The position numbers were made by a program, and so were the translations under genes. Shown piece after piece: positions 17,044-25,509 of a DNA stretch of 28,044 nt. The stretch spans positions 1 to 28,044 of the forward strand of contig CAZSWP010000045.1 in NCBI GenBank assembly GCA_964610875.1, written 5' to 3'. Under the pieces are notes generated by a model. That model was not told the DNA's origin. It made no database searches and worked only from the letters and a program-made list of their open reading frames with translations. Numbering within the stretch: position 1 is the first letter of the stretch; each line of letters starts with the position of its first letter. The DNA is from an uncultured archaeon (GTDB lineage: Archaea > Asgardarchaeota > Thorarchaeia > Thorarchaeales > Thorarchaeaceae).

Positions 17044-18627
17044 TTATTGCTCACTCATATACAATAATGGAATCACCCAATTAACGAAGATGAGTATGCT
17101 TCCAAAGATCCAGATACTTGCAAGGTTAGTATGCCATACAAGCAAGGCAATTGTGTTCACCCCTAAAAATACAAAAACGACAGCAATGATGATTGCATAG
17201 AGCAAATCAGCGATGACTACCTCTTTAATTGGTTGACCCTTCACTTTTCTGTACAATGGAATGAAGATAGATACACCCAATAAAATTACCAAGCTGGCTA
17301 TTTCTTCTATTTTGAAGTTGGCAAATCCAAAGGTACGCGTAATCTCCGTCGTTTCTCCTTCTGCTGTGGTAATAACTACCTTCAATTCGTGTTCCCATTT
17401 CGTATAGTTATTAGTATCAAATGAGAAGCTGAAAGTTCCCACATTGGCTGTGATATCTTCCAGTCCTGAAACAATTTCATCATCAACATAGACTGTGATT
17501 TGAACAGTTTCCCATGTGGATTCGATGGTTATTGTAAAGTCAGCAATACCCACAACTACATCTGAATCCGGTGAAATGAAAGATGCCTCTGGTACACCAT
17601 GATTATCCACAATGAGTAAAAGTGTATATTTCCAGTCGTGTCCAAAGTCATCATTTGCTATGAAAGTGAAATTATGCTCGCCTTCTGAATAGGGGCTAGT
17701 TTCAACGAATATTGTTGTTCTACCGGGATATATCGTAATATTTTGTGCATCACTTGTTAGCTCATCGTCGATATAGACAGACATCTCTCCACTGGAATAT
17801 GGGGTTGTTGTTCTGATAATGAAGCTTGCATTTCCTGAAACTCTCTGGTAATTAGCAACACCAACTACTGTGAATCTGATATGGTCGATGAAGAAAAGCT
17901 CAACCCAGGCACTATCAACGAGACCCTCTTCTGTGTATACTATCGTAGTAACATTGTGATTTCCGTTTTCATATCTACTTCCATTGATTGTGTAGTTATT
18001 TGCTCCTACAGGTACTACAGTGGCATTATATTCTTCTGTAAGAGTACCATCAACAGTGATGTTCAGAAAGAGCTCAGCATAGTCCGATGTAATGTTTAGG
18101 TAGATGTCATCCAATCCTGTGAAATTGGCATTCTCACTTGGTGCAATTATTTCAATACCTGGATAACCATGATTGTCAACCTCAAACACCAGATAATATG
18201 TTTCTCTTTCAAGTATTCCAGTGTTATTCTCTTCGAAGAGAAAAGTGAAGTTCAGAAATCCCTCTGGTAGAATTGTAGTATTGATAGTAAAATTCTGATT
18301 ACCATCCATTACTTCTGTCACATTATAATCTGGGTGGATTTCATCTTCTACAAATAACGTCAGATTGAGTGGTGTATTATCAGATGTTACTGTCATATTC
18401 AAATCTACTGTACCAGATATCAAGCTTGTATTTCCCAAACCTGTTTGTTCTACTTGAATGAGAACTACTGAGATGTTCTCAGAGTCATAACCTGAAAACA
18501 ATATCTGTATTTTTGGTGCATGAGGGGTCAAAGGTTGATCCATGCCCGAAGATATCATTTGCATCTGTGTTGCACCAAGTAGTATTGTCATTACGAGTAG
18601 TATTGATATTAGACTCGTTCTCTTCAT
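17044..18627 (-). CDS. Cell-surface glycoprotein with Ig-like beta repeats and C-terminal TM helices
   Basis: Signal peptide MKRTSLISILLV…; about four beta-rich repeats (VDNHG..P twice; YxxGxH-like motifs); about 20 N-x-S/T sequons; three C-terminal hydrophobic segments. Confidence 0.75.
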   Translation of the reverse strand: MKRTSLISILLVMTILLGATQMQMISSGMDQPLTPHAPKIQILFSGYDSENISVVLIQVEQTGLGNTSLISGTVDLNMTVTSDNTPLNLTLFVEDEIHPDYNVTEVMDGNQNFTINTTILPEGFLNFTFLFEENNTGILERETYYLVFEVDNHGYPGIEIIAPSENANFTGLDDIYLNITSDYAELFLNITVDGTLTEEYNATVVPVGANNYTINGSRYENGNHNVTTIVYTEEGLVDSAWVELFFIDHIRFTVVGVANYQRVSGNASFIIRTTTPYSSGEMSVYIDDELTSDAQNITIYPGRTTIFVETSPYSEGEHNFTFIANDDFGHDWKYTLLLIVDNHGVPEASFISPDSDVVVGIADFTITIESTWETVQITVYVDDEIVSGLEDITANVGTFSFSFDTNNYTKWEHELKVVITTAEGETTEITRTFGFANFKIEEIASLVILLGVSIFIPLYRKVKGQPIKEVVIADLLYAIIIAVVFVFLGVNTIALLVWHTNLASIWIFGSILIFVNWVIPLLYMSEQ

Positions 18628-18801: not shown

Positions 18802-21201
18802 ATGACCGTTGATGAAAATTCACGTTCATCTGTAAAAATCTGGTCTGCCTCAGAAGGCCTTTCAAATCGCGTAAAATACCTTCGTGAGCATTTCTATTCA
18901 TTTCATGAACGTGCTGAAACTAATGAACCCTATGCCTTCACAACAGGCAAAGAATGGGATGAGTTGTATTCATACCACGATTGGGCAAATGAACCTGCTA
19001 TTTACCAATTCTTCCCTTCAATTGATCAGACTTTAAAAGCGATAGCTGTGGAGGTTGATTTACCTGAAGATTATTGGGAATATGGTCTGAAGAAACGAAA
19101 AGCCATTTTCTTCCATGAGGTAATGACAAAGTACATGCCTGTGATTATTGTTGATGGTGAATTAATCGTTGGATTTAATTTTAACACTGCACTCTCGAAG
19201 TCATTGAACAAGCAGGAAACCAAAAAAAGGAATAAATTAATGGAATCTTGGTTTAAAGAAGCGACGCGCCTTAATCAGCTTGGTGTTGGTACAGCTTCCT
19301 CAGTACCAGGCCATATCATTCCAAATTACGCAAAAGTACTACAAATCGGTTTGAAAGGGATTGTCAAAGAATTTGAGATGCTTCTGAAAAGTGAAGTTAG
19401 TATCGAACATCGTGAATTCATAGATGCTTTGATTTTAAGTTGTGAAACCGCCAGAGATTATAACTTACGATACGCCTCAAAAGCAGAGGAACTAGCGGAA
19501 AAAGAAACAGACTCTCAAAGAAGAAATGAACTACTAGAGATTGCAAGGATTTGTAAAAAAGTACCTTGGGAACCACCTGATACCTTTTGGGAGGCCTTAC
19601 AATCATTATGGACTATTCATATGCTTGTCATGGCTGCAGAATCTTATCCTGGTGCAGGACTTTCTCATGGTAGATGGGACCAATATCTATATCCATTTTA
19701 TGAGAATAGTGTTCTAAATGGGGATACGGAATACGATTTTGCCAAAGAATTGGTGCAATGCTATTGGATAAAGCACAATTATGTCTACGATTTTCAAGGG
19801 CGATTGGGAATCAATCAAGGAATCAATTCTAGTTTTGGTCAGTTAGTTACATTGAGTGGTTGTGGCCCTAGTGGTGAAGACTTAACCAATGAACTGACTT
19901 TGTTAGCATTAGACGTTATTGAAGAGATGAATCTTCTTGAACCTAAACCCAACATCCGCATTCACCGAAACACGCCTCAAGACTTTCTGATTCGAGTTTC
20001 TGAGATTCTAGCGAAAGCACAAGGTTCTCCATTTCTACTAAATTTCGATGAGCATAGTATTGACGGATTGGTTTGGCAAGGTGTTCCGAGGGAGGATGCT
20101 TGGGATTATGGAATTGTTGGTTGTCTGGAAAACACAATGCAAGGTAATGACAGGTCTGGCACAGTAGATGTAAATATCAACCTTGCAAAAGCCATTGAAC
20201 TTGCTTTGAATGACGGAAAGGACTTACAAACTGATGACCAGCTTGGTCCATCCACTGGTGATCCAAATCAATTTGCTAATTATTCTGAATTCCTCAACGC
20301 ATTGAAGAAACAACTTGTCGCCCTTATCGATCTTCTTACAGAATGCGGGAATATGGCTGATACGTTGAGGGCGAGATATCAACCCACTCCGTATCTAAGT
20401 GCACTAATGGATGGTTGTGCAGTCACTGGTAAAGATGTCAACGAAGGAGGAACGGTATGGAATTTCAACACACTCGAAGGAATGGGTATTGCCACTTTAG
20501 CTGATTCGGTTGCTGCAGTAAAGAAAATTGTTTTTGAAGATAAGAGAATCAGCATGGATGAATTACTAAAGGCAATCAAATCAAATTTTGATGGTTACGA
20601 AGAAGTACGACAACTGCTTCGTTCCAAAGCACCGAAGTTCGGGAATGATGACAACTATGTAGATGAGATTGCTCGGGAACTATCTACATTTTGGGCAAAG
20701 GAGGCTTTCAAAAGAGAAAATCCATACACTGGTAGGAAATATCGTGCTGGATATTTGAGCTGGAACTACTATATTCCATTAGCTCCTCTAACTGCTGCAA
20801 CGCCAGATGGTCGAAGACGAGGCGAATTTCTATCTGGAGGTGTGGGTGCAGTTCAAGGTATGGATTCTAAAGGTCCGACTGCCTCAATTTCATCTGTGGG
20901 TAAATTAGGATTAGAAACCGTTCCGAATGGTGCGTCTCACACAATAACTCTTAGTCCTTCAATGGTAAGAACTCCAGAACATATTGAGAAACTTGCAGCT
21001 CTCATTAGAGCATACAACGAAGTTGGTGGGACTGCTCTTCAGATTAACATCATTGATAGTAAGACACTTCATGATGCACAGACAAATCCGGACAGGTATT
21101 CAAACCTCTTGGTTCGAGTGACTGGGTATAATGCCTTTTTCACTCAAATAGGCCGCGAGCTTCAAGAAGAGATAATTGCACGAACGGAGCACCGATTGTA
21201 A
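18802..21201 (+). CDS. Glycyl radical enzyme (PFL-like superfamily), substrate unknown
   Basis: 799 aa; GRWDQY, Cys loop GCLE (C441/E443), PKFGNDD, ATPDGR, Gly loop LLVRVTGY (G775). Confidence 0.92.
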   Translation: MTVDENSRSSVKIWSASEGLSNRVKYLREHFYSFHERAETNEPYAFTTGKEWDELYSYHDWANEPAIYQFFPSIDQTLKAIAVEVDLPEDYWEYGLKKRKAIFFHEVMTKYMPVIIVDGELIVGFNFNTALSKSLNKQETKKRNKLMESWFKEATRLNQLGVGTASSVPGHIIPNYAKVLQIGLKGIVKEFEMLLKSEVSIEHREFIDALILSCETARDYNLRYASKAEELAEKETDSQRRNELLEIARICKKVPWEPPDTFWEALQSLWTIHMLVMAAESYPGAGLSHGRWDQYLYPFYENSVLNGDTEYDFAKELVQCYWIKHNYVYDFQGRLGINQGINSSFGQLVTLSGCGPSGEDLTNELTLLALDVIEEMNLLEPKPNIRIHRNTPQDFLIRVSEILAKAQGSPFLLNFDEHSIDGLVWQGVPREDAWDYGIVGCLENTMQGNDRSGTVDVNINLAKAIELALNDGKDLQTDDQLGPSTGDPNQFANYSEFLNALKKQLVALIDLLTECGNMADTLRARYQPTPYLSALMDGCAVTGKDVNEGGTVWNFNTLEGMGIATLADSVAAVKKIVFEDKRISMDELLKAIKSNFDGYEEVRQLLRSKAPKFGNDDNYVDEIARELSTFWAKEAFKRENPYTGRKYRAGYLSWNYYIPLAPLTAATPDGRRRGEFLSGGVGAVQGMDSKGPTASISSVGKLGLETVPNGASHTITLSPSMVRTPEHIEKLAALIRAYNEVGGTALQINIIDSKTLHDAQTNPDRYSNLLVRVTGYNAFFTQIGRELQEEIIARTEHRL

Positions 21202-22178
21202 TGACAATCGAGGGGTATGTAACTAACATTCAACGTTGTTCAACAGAGGATGGACCGGGCTTAAGAACAACTGTATTCCTTAAGGGGTGTCCTTTACAAT
21301 GTGTATGGTGTCATAATATCGAGACAATTGAATCAAAACCTCAACTTGTTTGGCACGAACGAAAATGCATTGGTGACAAGGCTTGCATTGAAACATGCAG
21401 GAATGCCGCATTACAATTTACTCAGGATGGGATGTCGATTGACAGAGAGAAATGCATTACATGTGGCGAATGTGAGGAAGCTTGTCCAACAGGTGCCCTT
21501 GAGATTATGGGAAAGAAATGGAATGCTTCCGAGCTTGTTAAGGATTTAATTCGAGATAAAATCTTCTTCACAACATCTAATGGTGGAATTACTATTTCTG
21601 GTGGTGAACCTTTACTGCAATATGACTTTGCATTAGAAATTGCAAGAGGGATCCAATCTGAAGGGGTTTCTGTAGCACTTGATACCACTGGGTATGCAAG
21701 TGAAACAATATGGAGAAAGATCATAGCAAACGTGGATTTGGTATTGCTGGACTTGAAACAAATGGATGAGCTAAAACATGAGGAATACACTGGTGTTCCT
21801 CTAAAGAGGATTCTCGACAATGCTAAGATTCTTGCCCAAGAAAACATACCTACTTGGATTCGAACACCTATTATTCCTGGACACACTGATGATGATGAAA
21901 ATATACGACTAATTGCTGAATTCATTCAAGCAGAATTACCCAATGTTGAGAGATATGATTTACTTGCATTCAACAAAATGTGTATTGAGAAGTACTCTCT
22001 TTTTGGATTAGTGTATCCTTTGAAAGATCATCCATTAGTAGAATCGGATACGATGGAAAAGCTCACTTCACTTGCTAGAGATATTGGCATTTCCAAAGTC
22101 ACTTGGTCTGGAATGACCAAGACTGAATCCAATGAATCAATATCAATACAAAAGCAGGAGGTTGGACACTGTGGCTAA
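21201..22178 (+). CDS. Glycyl-radical enzyme activating enzyme with ferredoxin-like insert
   Basis: DGPGLRTTVFLKGCPLQCVWC; insert CIGDKACIETC…CITCGECEEACP; GGITISGGEP; TAATG overlap with the GRE gene. Confidence 0.92.
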   Translation: MTIEGYVTNIQRCSTEDGPGLRTTVFLKGCPLQCVWCHNIETIESKPQLVWHERKCIGDKACIETCRNAALQFTQDGMSIDREKCITCGECEEACPTGALEIMGKKWNASELVKDLIRDKIFFTTSNGGITISGGEPLLQYDFALEIARGIQSEGVSVALDTTGYASETIWRKIIANVDLVLLDLKQMDELKHEEYTGVPLKRILDNAKILAQENIPTWIRTPIIPGHTDDDENIRLIAEFIQAELPNVERYDLLAFNKMCIEKYSLFGLVYPLKDHPLVESDTMEKLTSLARDIGISKVTWSGMTKTESNESISIQKQEVGHCG

Positions 22179-22998
22179 AATTATTACTAATGAACTCAGA
22201 GAAACCTTAGAAGTCTTTGAGAATCCGAAATTCTTTGCAACACACGACGAAACTGGAGAACCAAACATTGCTCTCGTGATGACCTGGGCACCCTATGAAG
22301 GAAACACTCTTGTCTATGGTGATTTCATGACCTACAAGACTCGAAAGAACCTTGAACATAATAACCCAAAAATCGGAATTCTTGTCATGACTATGGACCT
22401 TGATACTTGGATGATTCATGCAGATTTTGAGTCTTTTCATCGAAATGATGAGATATACGAGTTTATAGCACAGACTCCATTGTTTCGGTATAATCAATAC
22501 ACAAATGCCCGTTCTGCTGGAGTTGCAAATGCAGTTAGGGCAAGTTCTAATTATAGGCTATCAAAAATCTCAGTTCTTCTATCGTATATCAAAGCTAGAC
22601 TTGCTACTCGTGGAATTGAGAAGGTGATACGTGAAGATGGAACTATGCCCAGAAATGTGCTTGAAAGAGTTTCAGCCATGACCACTGTGAAAATGTTTTC
22701 ATTCGTTGGAAGTGATGGTTATCCACAGATTGTTCCTGCTTTTGGAATGTATCCAGTAGGGACAAATAGATTGGTAGTTGATTTGGGTGAGGCCAAACGT
22801 AGAGCGAGTATTCCATTTGATGGCCAAAGAGTTGCAATTTCCATTGTGAGTCTAGAACCCGCAGCGTTCCAAATGAAAGGGACATTCACACAAATATCTG
22901 GTTCTAAAGGATTAATTGACTTGGATAGAGTCTATACATGCTCTCTACCGAGACCTGGACTTAGGGTAGATAGACCTCTCATAAAGAAGGATATGTAA
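22171..22998 (+). CDS. Pyridoxamine 5'-phosphate oxidase-like (split-barrel) protein with two tandem domains
   Basis: KFFATHDETGEPNI…KTRKNLEHNNPKI in domain 1 and KMFSFVGSDGYPQI in domain 2; GTG at 22171 with GGAGGT RBS, overlapping the activase stop. Confidence 0.75.
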   Translation: MAKIITNELRETLEVFENPKFFATHDETGEPNIALVMTWAPYEGNTLVYGDFMTYKTRKNLEHNNPKIGILVMTMDLDTWMIHADFESFHRNDEIYEFIAQTPLFRYNQYTNARSAGVANAVRASSNYRLSKISVLLSYIKARLATRGIEKVIREDGTMPRNVLERVSAMTTVKMFSFVGSDGYPQIVPAFGMYPVGTNRLVVDLGEAKRRASIPFDGQRVAISIVSLEPAAFQMKGTFTQISGSKGLIDLDRVYTCSLPRPGLRVDRPLIKKDM

Positions 22999-23056
22999 AA
23001 GCTCACTGACCAAAAACGCTATGTCTGGCATACTTTTTTCAAATGGATGATGCTTA

Positions 23057-23587
23057 ATGGCTGATGAATGGCATTTCACAACTCGTGATGGTCGAGAAGG
23101 GCGGATTGCTCATGCAAGACAATCTGATGCAGTGGATATGCATTCAAATTTTTGTTCAGTTGTAGAAGAAGGTCTATGGTTACCAACAATGCACCCAAGC
23201 TCAAGAATTAGTGATTGGGCTGAATGGATTACAAGAATCTATAGAACTAGAGAATTCCTTCTCGTTGCTAAAGTTGAAGACGAATATGCAGGACATCTTA
23301 GTCTTCAGCCAGAAGAATGGGCTGCTTCTCAGCATGTGGCAAGATTAGGTATCATCATCAAGGATGGTTTTAGGTTGAATGGTGTTGGTCGTGCGCTTAT
23401 GTTGGCTGCTGAAGAAGTGGCTAAGAAATCAGACTATGAGAAGATAGTATTGAGTACTTTTGTAGACAATGAGATAGCCAAGACTCTATATCTGAGTATT
23501 GACTATCAGATAGTTGGTAGACGCAAAGGCCAATTCAAGATGCCTAAGGGTTATATCGATGAAATACTAATGGAAAAGACGCTTTGA
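23057..23587 (+). CDS. GNAT family N-acetyltransferase
   Basis: FRLNGVGRALM motif A; N..A..LY…Y…GRRKGQFK…DEILMEK. Confidence 0.88.
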   Translation: MADEWHFTTRDGREGRIAHARQSDAVDMHSNFCSVVEEGLWLPTMHPSSRISDWAEWITRIYRTREFLLVAKVEDEYAGHLSLQPEEWAASQHVARLGIIIKDGFRLNGVGRALMLAAEEVAKKSDYEKIVLSTFVDNEIAKTLYLSIDYQIVGRRKGQFKMPKGYIDEILMEKTL

Positions 23588-23605: not shown

Positions 23606-24142
23606 ATGTGGCGGAAAATAATGGGCTCCTTTAAAGAATCTCCAAGACGCCTCGCAGTTGCAAAAGCTCTTCTCAGACATGGCTTTTCAATAGATAAAGA
23701 AAGTAAGAAGGATTCCAAGAATTCATCTGTCATAGTAAAATGCGGAAATATCCATGTGCCATTGAAGTCAATTGGTGATGCATTGGGTATTGACAGACGG
23801 ACTGTAAGAGCAACCGTAGATGACATCTATGGGAATGAAGAGCTGCGAGTGCTTTATTCACGAATCCTACCAGCAGGACCCTCTCTTGAGAAAGTCAGTG
23901 AGATTATGGGCTATGGAGTCGTCACAATCTATGTTCATTCTCCAGAGGACCCAGGTATTCTTTCAGAAGTCACTCAAGCTATTGCGGGATACAATATTGC
24001 CATCCGACAGGTACTCGCAGAAGATGTCGCAATCTATGAAGAACCCTGTCTGAAAGTCATCACTAAGACACCACTTCCTGGAGCAGTCATTGAAACACTA
24101 TCCAGTATTAGAGGAGTCACACGGGTAATTATTGGTCATTAG
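23606..24142 (+). CDS. Archaeal ACT-domain regulator of amino-acid metabolism (COG2150-like)
   Basis: MW..I…F…P…VA..LL..G, CG, GIDRRTV, and C-terminal ACT motif PGILSEV…NIAIRQ. Confidence 0.8.
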   Translation: MWRKIMGSFKESPRRLAVAKALLRHGFSIDKESKKDSKNSSVIVKCGNIHVPLKSIGDALGIDRRTVRATVDDIYGNEELRVLYSRILPAGPSLEKVSEIMGYGVVTIYVHSPEDPGILSEVTQAIAGYNIAIRQVLAEDVAIYEEPCLKVITKTPLPGAVIETLSSIRGVTRVIIGH

Positions 24143-24204: not shown

Positions 24205-25509
24205 ATGGATTCAGAAACGTCTTCTACATCCGGAATCATCCCAAATGAGGATGAGCTGGATATTAAGAAGTCGGATAATCTAAGACAAGTCTGGATGCTC
24301 GCTTTCTCTCTCGCAATTCTACAAGTAGGATTTGGTATTGTAACTCCAATATTTCCATTCTATATAATCGAACTGGGTGCAACAGCATTAGATTTAGGAA
24401 TATTAGCCGCTTCTTTTGCATTTGCTCGAATACTATTGGCTGGTCCATTAGGTGGTTTGTCTGATCGAATCGGTAGAAAACCTGTTCTTATGTATGCTCT
24501 TTTTGGATTTGCAGCAGCCAATGTTGCATATGCATTCGCTCCTAATATCATTGTAATGATTATTGCGCGAGCGATAGAAGGTGCTGTTTCTGCAGGTTTC
24601 TACCCTGCTGCGAATGCATTTGTTTCGGATATGACAACGATTCAAAATCGTGGAACTGCTATGGGATATCTGAGTACTGGTAATATGGTTGGATTCATTG
24701 TGGGTCCTACTGTTGGTGGAGTTCTAGCAGAATTTCTTGGTATTCGAATGCCATTCATAATTGCTGCAATTGCATCTATTGGGACATTGATGGCAATCAC
24801 AATTCTTGTACGTGAACCTGAAGGTAAGTGCAGTCTTCTTCCTGGCCCCGAGAAGAAAATCAAGCTGTTGGAGGTGTTATCAAATCACTCCCTATCATAT
24901 AATGTTCTAGCCCTTGCAATGTTCATCAATATGTTTGCAATTGGTATACTAGAAGTTGCATTCATGTTGGATGCAGTGATTCGATATTCATTTACTCCTC
25001 TACAGATTGGGATATTCTTTGGAGTACTCGGAATTGTTATGATTCTTGGTAATGTTGGATTTGGACATCTTTCTGACAGGATAGGGAGAAAATGGCTTAT
25101 TGCGGCAGGCTCAGCAATTGCTTCTGTTGCATTGTTGTTTTTCATATTAGCAAGTGATGTTGTGGGTTTCTATTTCGCTGGCAGTATTCTTGGAGTTGCT
25201 ATTTCAATGAGAGGTCCTAGCATTCAGGCTTTGATTGCAGACCTCACGGATAACGAAGCATACGGGGTTGTAATGGGCTTTTTTGGTGCTGTATCAAACA
25301 GTGCATATGTAGTGGGTCCTCTTCTTGGTGGTTATTTGTTTGACACACATGGTGATAGCACAAGTAGCTTGGTAGTGGCTGCAGTGGTTTCATTTGGTGG
25401 ATTTCTTACAGCAGCAATTGGATTGCCTAGTAGCGTTACAAGAGAGAGTGAATGCATAGAGATAATGGAATCCAATATAGATTCACAAATCGATGATTCT
25501 TTGAACTAA
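24205..25509 (+). CDS. MFS transporter (DHA1-like)
   Basis: About 12 TM; motif A GGLSDRIGRK and its repeat GHLSDRIGRK; motif C-like GFIVGPTVGG. Confidence 0.9.
   Translation: MDSETSSTSGIIPNEDELDIKKSDNLRQVWMLAFSLAILQVGFGIVTPIFPFYIIELGATALDLGILAASFAFARILLAGPLGGLSDRIGRKPVLMYALFGFAAANVAYAFAPNIIVMIIARAIEGAVSAGFYPAANAFVSDMTTIQNRGTAMGYLSTGNMVGFIVGPTVGGVLAEFLGIRMPFIIAAIASIGTLMAITILVREPEGKCSLLPGPEKKIKLLEVLSNHSLSYNVLALAMFINMFAIGILEVAFMLDAVIRYSFTPLQIGIFFGVLGIVMILGNVGFGHLSDRIGRKWLIAAGSAIASVALLFFILASDVVGFYFAGSILGVAISMRGPSIQALIADLTDNEAYGVVMGFFGAVSNSAYVVGPLLGGYLFDTHGDSTSSLVVAAVVSFGGFLTAAIGLPSSVTRESECIEIMESNIDSQIDDSLN

Follow-up and report, generated by a model that had tools for sequence, protein, structure and literature searches.

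We report that a 28,044-nucleotide stretch of DNA from an uncultured archaeon of the Thorarchaeaceae (contig CAZSWP010000045.1 of GenBank assembly GCA_964610875.1; hereafter, the window) encodes an oxygen-sensitive glycyl radical enzyme (GRE), its radical-SAM activating enzyme (activase) and a tandem split-barrel protein (SB). The three are best explained as a three-component GRE system belonging to a widespread, uncharacterised family, in which SB acts as a GRE-associated accessory or redox subunit. This explanation, to which we give an even chance, builds on observations of gene structure and family membership, on the co-inheritance and covariation of the genes, and on fold. The genes derive from three + strand open reading frames (ORFs) of the window (18802–21201, 799 aa; 21201–22178, 325 aa; and 22132–22998, 288 aa). 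The first is an eliminase-type GRE (P0001, 18802..21201), recognised by Pfam, NCBIfam, PDB matches, its structural model and its clade; the second is the activase (P0002, 21201..22178), recognised by TIGR02494; and the third is SB (P0123, 22171..22998), called as a gene of 275 aa with a GTG start. As the sequence-only reading of this DNA had proposed, the genes overlap end to start: the GRE stop overlaps the activase ATG in TAATG (21199..21203, read from the sequence), and the GTG of SB at 22171 lies 8 nt inside the 3′ end of the activase gene. Given that the gene called on the contig is the 275-aa GTG form, and with an AGGAGG resembling a ribosome-binding site (22155..22160) 10 nt before it, the GTG at 22171 is most likely the start of SB, over the longer 22132 ORF. 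The trio and all the features within it lie on the + strand.

To survey the family, we scanned 185,579 species genomes with two signature peptides of the GRE, [YF]R[AGP]G[YM]LSWN and [DN]Y[AG]xVGCLEN, which matched at least 593 stretches, at least 590 of them encoding a GRE-family relative. The sources include Thor, Jord and other Asgard lineages, as well as bacteria from the Anaerolineae, Dehalococcoidia, Thermodesulfobacteriota, Actinomycetota (Geothermincolia), Bacillota (Syntrophomonadaceae), Nitrospirota, Hydrogenedentota, Spirochaetota, Planctomycetota and others, amounting to ten or more bacterial phyla altogether. The tie to Asgard archaea drawn earlier did not hold up, with the system being no less common in Chloroflexota, Thermodesulfobacteriota, Actinomycetota, Bacillota, Nitrospirota, Hydrogenedentota and other phyla. 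Gene order was surveyed in the best 80 of the at least 590 loci. In 67 of the 80, SB immediately follows the GRE or the activase, with the order GRE-activase-SB in 62 and GRE-SB in 5, which agrees with the prediction that homologues carrying the SWNY motif keep the split-barrel neighbour. Among the remaining loci, four end just after the activase and nine have the GRE alone, four of these with less than 2 kb downstream. Clustering of the 2,323 flanking ORFs of these 80 loci gave as the commonest extra gene an acyl-CoA dehydrogenase (9 loci), followed by an ABC ATPase (7 loci; 9 with Thor), an AMP ligase (5), an enoyl-CoA hydratase (4) and an aldehyde:ferredoxin oxidoreductase (3; 4 with Thor). 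Such extra neighbours are too few to define a pathway, and SB is the sole recurring neighbour besides the activase.

Jordarchaeales, with a GRE 59% identical to that of the window, keep GRE-activase-SB alone in otherwise different surroundings. Six of the seven distant SB homologues that we sampled (27–35% identity) lie behind an activase and five have a GRE upstream, the GREs beside them being 45–62% identical to the window GRE. Among the Asgard archaea, SB is present in 180 of 400 genomes and in 45 of 85 genera, complete single-contig genomes included, and in 38 Asgard loci it adjoins the GRE, the activase or both, save in two GRE-centred loci. In the window organism's own family, 47 genomes have both GRE and SB and 34 have neither; only the GRE was found in three and only SB in one, with these single-gene cases mostly at contig ends. 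Further, 16 genomes of the genus g12 that have only a more distant GRE match (E ~1e-84 to 1e-130) are without SB. A second GRE in the genome of the window organism (contig 25; HypD equivalog score 1,241 against a cut-off of 1,100) gives this same distant level of match, and the HypD-type GRE–activase pair of this genome is likewise without SB. Judged by gene content and order, the trio is a conserved three-gene unit, inherited together in hundreds of uncultured anaerobes.

Several loci depart from the simple arrangement. Some Loki-type genomes (G163, G127, G399, G212 and G242) each have two or three SB genes and up to 16 GRE candidates; the Asgard survey scored two GREs per genome only. In G163, the three SB copies stand in three different arrangements (L028–L030): downstream of an activase at some remove, divergent from a GRE, and directly behind a GRE. 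In several Chloroflexota loci (L072, L074, L078, L090, L095, L106, L126, L130 and L133), 0.8–3 kb of extra sequence separates the GRE from the activase-SB pair, and in L072, L078 and L090 this includes an ORF of the UPF0047 family.

The GRE shows both hallmarks of its superfamily, a barrel domain (PFL-like PF02901, 495 bits) and a C-terminal RVxG domain (Gly_radical PF01228, 91 bits, residues 678–781), and has a cognate activase with a CxxxCxxC motif alongside. It falls below the cut-off of every NCBIfam equivalog that we tried (HypD, HpsG, HpfG, CutC, PflD-type, IAD, HPAD and PFL), with all scores at less than half of the cut-offs: the best is HypD at 489 against 1,100, and the remainder score 470, 420, 417, 407, 319, 269 and 104, their cut-offs being about 1,000–1,150. 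On the PFL2/glycerol-dehydratase subfamily model TIGR01774 it scores 531 against a cut-off of 678. Its best match among PDB sequences is glycerol dehydratase (1r8w, 440 bits), followed by HypD (410), propanediol dehydratase (409), CutC (407), MasD (247), TutD (215), HPAD (198) and PFL (101). In BLASTP comparisons with reference genes taken from annotated records, it is 37% identical to Clostridium butyricum DhaB1 over residues 170–799, 35% to CutC, 33–34% to HypD, 33% to PflD, 32% each to YbiW and a microcompartment diol dehydratase, 28% to a genuine BssA and 26% to PflB. An AlphaFold model (predicted local distance difference test score, pLDDT, 85.6) superposes with a template-modelling (TM) score of 0.81 on propanediol and glycerol dehydratases, 0.82 on HypD and about 0.8 on many other GRE structures.

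In a maximum-likelihood tree built from 35 family members together with 8 references, the whole family falls on one branch (SH-aLRT 100) with a stem of 1.59 changes per site, apart from the references. Thus, judged by identity (at most 37%), failed cut-offs and the separate branch, the GRE represents a new eliminase-group clade, distinct from the references tested, which upholds its earlier description as unassigned. Within the tree, the Thor GRE is placed closer to copies from Jordarchaeales and from bacteria (Anaerolineae, Dehalococcoidia) than to the Loki-type Asgard copies, and the Loki-type copies are nested in a bacterial group beside those of Spirochaetota and Pseudomonadota. The corresponding identities of the Thor GRE are 53–59% to bacterial copies and 45–48% to Loki-type copies. 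The branching pattern suggests repeated transfer between bacteria and Asgard archaea.

The motifs quoted for this GRE by the sequence-only reading are all found in the translation at the residues given for them: H171 in VPGH, ESYPGAGLSHG (280–290), INSSFGQ (341–347), GCLE (440–443), SGTVD (452–456), W654 in GYLSWNYY (650–657) and RVTGY (772–776). Conservation was assessed over 32 orthologues at 45–78% identity. Invariant in all 32 are, among others, G170-H171, E280-S281-Y282, G284, G286, S288, G290-R291, G340-I341, G346-Q347, V439-G-C441-L-E443-N-T445, D450, S452, T454-V455, N458, R648, G650, S653, N655-Y656 and R772/T774/G775, while L652 and W654 are each kept in 31. The near-invariant segments read ESYPG(P/A)G-x-S-x-GR, GI-x-S-x-FGQL, VGCLENT, D-R-S-G-T-V-(D/N) and R-x-G-(Y/M)-LSWNY. 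By this measure, the quoted motifs are signatures of the family and not chance resemblances.

The alignments locate the predicted catalytic residues within these signatures. The Cys loop G440-C441-L442-E443 (20119..20130) has a single catalytic Cys with a Glu at +2; C441 and E443 align to C433 and E435 of glycerol dehydratase (GDH), and GCLE lines up with GCVE in GDH and CutC and with GCIE in HypD. The earlier typing of this single-Cys, C-x-E loop as that of an eliminase is therefore borne out, and it extends to all 32 orthologues. His171 (codon 19312..19314), also invariant, aligns to His164 of GDH, both with 1r8w and in a MAFFT alignment with the C. butyricum enzyme; in GRE dehydratases (GDH, propanediol dehydratase, HypD and PflD/YbiW), this His of the G-H motif protonates the leaving hydroxyl. 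The Gly loop R772-V-T-G775-Y (21115..21129), covered by the Pfam Gly_radical match, has Gly775 as the predicted radical site. The pocket strand L652-S-W654-N-Y656 (20755..20769), a family signature by its conservation, aligns to YPSSI of GDH.

The substrate pocket departs from this shared core. The glycerol-binding residues of GDH, which we take to be H281, S282, Y339, D447 and Y640, correspond in the GRE to A285/G286, G346, V455 and L652, and the glycerol-binding set is thus not retained. The pocket has instead an invariant polar and aromatic set (Y282, S288, Q347, N444, T445, D450, S452, T454, S653, N655 and Y656) together with the nearly invariant R451 and W654. The combination of the changed glycerol-binding positions with this set suggests that the substrate is probably larger and polar, and it would not be glycerol, propanediol, hydroxyproline or choline. 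The earlier observation that the pocket segments are unlike those of known GREs holds against the characterised GREs available here. Its sequel, that the enzyme has a new GRE chemistry, is overstated: the catalytic His/Cys/Glu triad argues for an ordinary 1,2-elimination acting on a new substrate.

The second GRE of this genome differs at the corresponding loop. Encoded on contig C25 of this genome (G000; 31721–34087; L005:1084–3450, minus strand), it reads GCVT in a MAFFT alignment with the Parabacteroides distasonis HypD, which has GCIE; the catalytic Glu thus appears to be replaced by Thr, possibly through a quirk of the alignment or as a feature conserved among Thor paralogues.

The activase scores 319 bits on TIGR02494 against a cut-off of 174 and combines Radical_SAM, Fer4_12 and ferredoxin-type Pfam domains. 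On the equivalog models for the activases HypD, CutC, BssD and PflA, its scores stay below the cut-offs. The radical-SAM cluster motif C30-x3-C34-x2-C37 (21288..21311) has its three Cys invariant in 33 activases. Equally invariant across this set are the seven Cys (C56, C62, C66, C85, C88, C91 and C95) of a ferredoxin-like insert (21366..21485; Fer4 matches over residues 52–102), which is predicted to carry two auxiliary 4Fe-4S clusters.

The structural model of SB, made with 64 relatives, has a pLDDT of 95.1 and displays two consecutive barrels joined by a helix. The N-terminal barrel (22171..22575) carries the motifs K-T-(K/R)-x-N-L and F-R-Y-N-A-Y, conserved in the 64 relatives, and includes the PNPOx_N region (residues 14–89); the C-terminal barrel (22618..22995) is a diverged repeat of the first according to the alignment of the halves (18% identity, E 4e-4) and the modelled secondary structure. 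Foldseek matched each half to 3in6, the FMN-binding protein (FMN-bp; FMN, flavin mononucleotide) of Desulfovibrio vulgaris, HupZ, an F420 reductase and PhdC. For 3in6, HupZ, FMN-bp and the F420 reductase, each matched over one barrel, the probability was 1.0, and the target TM scores for the FMN-binding and HupZ matches were 0.69–0.83. PNPOx_N also matches 49 of the 64 relatives (E 0.01 or better; best E 4.5e-11). Both the model and Foldseek therefore place SB in the split-barrel fold. Conservation among the 64 relatives is concentrated in the N-terminal half, in the segments K-F-L-A-T, G-x-P-N, K-T-(K/R)-x-N-L and F-R-Y-N-A-Y, with K-T-(K/R) conserved in that half only; no Cys or His is conserved among them. 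In the simplest view, SB is a fused, asymmetric pseudo-dimer that probably has a single flavin site in its N-terminal half. The tandem split-barrel fold proposed by the sequence-only reading is thus recovered in the model, and the FMN, F420 or heme cofactor proposed with it would be a prediction from the fold only.

Gene order is ambiguous as a guide to the protein with which SB works. In loci from G125, G128, G129, Syntrophomonadaceae and Nitrospiraceae, SB follows the GRE at 3–40 nt without an intervening activase; it more usually follows the activase, and in some Loki-type genomes it pairs with the activase away from the GRE. We compared pairwise distances over 77 complete trios. The distances of SB correlate more strongly with those of the GRE (r = 0.87) than with those of the activase (r = 0.63), the correlation between GRE and activase being 0.71. 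The partial correlation of GRE and SB given the activase is 0.76, whereas that of activase and SB given the GRE is 0.06 (95% bootstrap interval −0.09 to 0.18). The GRE–SB correlation exceeded the activase–SB correlation in 500 of 500 bootstraps, and the picture was the same after thinning to 41 loci. The mean distance is 1.69 for SB against 0.67 for the GRE, with SB evolving about 2.5 times faster. As the divergence of SB tracks the GRE and not the activase, a GRE-specific accessory is favoured over a generic electron donor to the activase. A co-fold of the activase with SB scored 0.00, which we counted neither for nor against binding.

Taken with family knowledge, these observations point to the following scheme. 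The activase would cleave S-adenosylmethionine and place a radical on Gly775 of the GRE, from where it would move to Cys441 for hydrogen abstraction from the substrate. The ensuing 1,2-elimination of a hydroxyl-type leaving group would use Glu443 as base and His171 as acid, yielding a carbonyl product as in the glycerol, propanediol and hydroxyproline dehydratases. SB, specific to this GRE clade, would act at the level of the GRE and not of the activase, presumably binding a flavin and associating physically with the enzyme. A more elaborate version, in which SB is a GRE-bound flavin subunit that exchanges electrons with the substrate-derived radical so that the pair performs a net redox elimination, is improbable in our estimation, and we know of no GRE that carries out such a reductive or oxidative radical elimination.

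Several points weigh against SB being a GRE-associated subunit of a distinct family. About eight Loki-type loci have SB with an activase and no GRE within about 6–8 kb on either side, and most loci have SB overlapping the stop of the activase gene, an arrangement that would also fit a 1:1 partner of the activase. Covariation within one operon can reflect shared history or swapping of the activase instead of contact. No fused GRE-SB or activase-SB protein was found in a search of proteins of 483–2,000 aa, which is weak evidence. The case for flavin binding comes from the fold and a short motif, and the PNPOx_N (PF01243) match of SB itself, at 24.5–24.7 bits, is under the gathering score of 28.1. 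Lastly, the tree was built without IslA, HpsG, HPAD, IAD and HplG, which are covered only by their lower PDB bit scores.

A different identity for the GRE would follow from the literature, in which such Asgard genes have been termed 2-oxoacid-formate lyases in MK-D1 (10.1101/726976), Ass/Bss in Hermod and Thor archaea (PMC8163825) and pflD in wetland Asgard archaea (PMC11291895). If these names applied here, the GRE would be a pyruvate or 2-oxoacid formate-lyase (PflD) or an alkyl- or benzylsuccinate synthase, and SB would be incidental to it. The published annotations constitute the support for this, along with the acyl-CoA dehydrogenase (9), CoA ligase (5) and enoyl-CoA hydratase (4) genes at a few bacterial loci. 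The formate-lyase label is contradicted by the loop VGCLE in place of ACCVS of PflB, without the Cys-Cys pair, by a score of 104 against 994 on TIGR01255 and by the 26% identity to PflB. For the succinate-synthase label, we had a direct comparison in a genuine BssA of G523, located via its BssD-type activase, which scores 1,571 bits to TutD, has the Cys loop LCMSPG without a Glu, lacks the GH motif and has small-subunit ORFs on both sides. In contrast, the window GRE has C-x-E and not CMS, possesses the GH His and is 28% identical to this BssA, and no small ORFs of the beta/gamma-subunit type flank it in the window. Its activase scores 219 bits on the BssD model TIGR04003 against a cut-off of 496, and the GRE scores against TutD and MasD (215 and 247 bits) are about half of those against the dehydratases. 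Measured against these defining features, both labels fail for this GRE family, and we regard either as very improbable.

The other two alternatives accept the GRE as an eliminase and differ on SB. It could be a dedicated low-potential flavin donor, a substitute for flavodoxin that reduces the 4Fe-4S cluster of the activase and has no role in the GRE reaction; this would fit its place right after the activase in 62 of the 80 loci, often with overlapping stop and start, the eight or so Loki-type activase-SB loci with no GRE in the stretch examined, the electron-transfer FMN-binding protein of D. vulgaris among its closest folds, and the ferredoxin-like insert of the activase, which suits electron uptake from a partner. 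Against it, the activase–SB correlation all but vanishes once the GRE is accounted for, several lineages have SB immediately after the GRE with no activase, and SB is absent both from the HypD-type pair and from the 16 g12 genomes without this GRE clade. The genome also has five flavodoxin-domain matches and would not require SB to make up for a missing flavodoxin, and we rejected the idea of a generic flavodoxin replacement. The covariation and the absence of SB from the HypD-type pair lower the likelihood of an electron donor, whether generic or specific to the activase, and we consider this role unlikely overall. Of the two roles offered by the sequence-only reading, supplying electrons to the activase is therefore disfavoured, whereas acting on the product is still viable. 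In that case, SB would be a free-standing flavin or F420 reductase, oxidase or isomerase converting a reactive carbonyl, enamine or imine product of the GRE, in the manner of ProC after HypD or alcohol dehydrogenase after glycerol dehydratase. Strict co-inheritance ties SB to one GRE clade, and the distances of SB and GRE covary; PNPOx-like proteins include many small-molecule oxidoreductases; and, with no other pathway gene conserved nearby, a product-handling step would have to fall to SB. However, its best structural matches are small cofactor carriers and not enzymes with a nicotinamide site, it has no conserved acid/base, Cys or His, its few near-invariant residues being mostly Gly, Pro, Asn and Tyr, and its roughly 2.5-fold faster evolution relative to the GRE is not what is usual in an enzyme whose substrate is fixed. 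To us, this role is as doubtful as that of a flavin donor. The preferred explanation remains the three-component system with SB as an accessory or redox subunit of the GRE.

The genes surrounding the trio in the window encode a 527-aa protein, two GNAT proteins, a ThiN-HTH protein, a TrpY-like regulator, an MFS transporter and a Memo protein. As noted in the sequence-only reading, a small Fe-S subunit, microcompartment shell, aldehyde or alcohol dehydrogenase and proC gene were not found within about 5 kb of the trio. A T6 run (23034..23039, + strand) between the SB stop and the ATG of the next gene at 23057 is, by its sequence, a possible end of the three-gene unit. This next gene encodes a GNAT protein (23057–23587) and precedes a TrpY-family HTH-ACT regulator (23606–24142; 153 bits against a cut-off of 180) and the MFS transporter (24205–25509); all three genes come after the trio in Thorarchaeota, L004 included, and the Thor relatives retain the entire neighbourhood. 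We rejected the downstream GNAT, TrpY-like and MFS genes as members of the unit because their synteny with the trio is limited to Thorarchaeota and absent in Jordarchaeales and bacteria. The 527-aa protein (17044–18627, minus strand), divergent to the GRE, is without a Pfam or NCBIfam match; a counterpart occupies the same place in another Thor genome (L004:4221–5810), with a faint match to Big_7.

As an obligatory partner, a split-barrel protein would add a new type of accessory component to GRE systems, and SB offers a simple genomic marker for this GRE family. To our knowledge, each newly assigned GRE family has revealed a major anaerobic reaction, as with the conversion of choline to trimethylamine and those of hydroxyproline, isethionate and sulfoquinovose products. 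When the metabolism of Asgard archaea is reconstructed, GREs are routinely given the label of pyruvate formate-lyase or of a hydrocarbon-activating succinate synthase. As both labels fail here, models resting on them, such as formate-based syntrophy or alkane degradation in Asgard archaea, lack support as far as this gene goes. The present analysis adds a covariation test, a survey of gene order and a direct rejection of the BssA label.

Among characterised systems, the closest are the glycerol dehydratase DhaB1/DhaB2 of C. butyricum (1r8w) and propanediol dehydratase (5i2a, 9rco), which have the same fold (TM 0.81). Glycerol dehydratase and the GRE have in common the single Cys, the Glu at +2, the GH His and a TIGR02494-type activase that carries a ferredoxin-like insert. 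The GRE differs from GDH in a two-residue YP insertion in its ES-x-G loop and in about 150 family-specific N-terminal residues, and its Gly loop reads RVTGYN where the references have RVAGYS; the trio, moreover, has no alcohol dehydrogenase neighbour and includes the extra, obligatory split-barrel gene. HypD (6vxc) is likewise an eliminase-type GRE (410 bits, TM 0.82), but with 33–34% identity the window GRE stands in a separate clade and has no proC neighbour, and the HypD loci are without SB. With CutC (5a0u, 5fau), it shares the C-x-E and a similar G-L-S-x-G-R-x-D-Q segment, whereas CutC has an Asp at the His position; the GRE scores 417 bits against the CutC equivalog cut-off of 1,050, and there are no microcompartment genes at its locus.

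SB is a third component without counterpart among the studied GREs, and our literature search found no description of a split-barrel or FMN-binding partner for a GRE. The PNPOx-like LssP of the limonene succinate-synthase operon was set aside as a precedent since its context is different. A precedent for a clade-specific, operon-encoded extra protein is provided by benzylsuccinate synthase (alpha-beta-gamma) and 4-hydroxyphenylacetate decarboxylase (a large and a small Fe-S subunit). The extras in these multi-subunit GREs are small, Cys-rich Fe-S proteins of about 60–90 aa, in contrast to the 275 aa of SB with no conserved Cys, and their catalytic subunits are distant from the window GRE (215 and 198 bits). 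We know of no link to a GRE for FMN-bp (1axj), the Syntrophomonas wolfei protein 3in6 or HupZ (5esc), on each of which the SB halves superpose. The K-T-basic motif of SB presumably sits where FMN-bp binds phosphate. These three proteins are homodimers of about 120 aa, whereas SB unites two diverged barrels in one chain, with the motif in the first half only.

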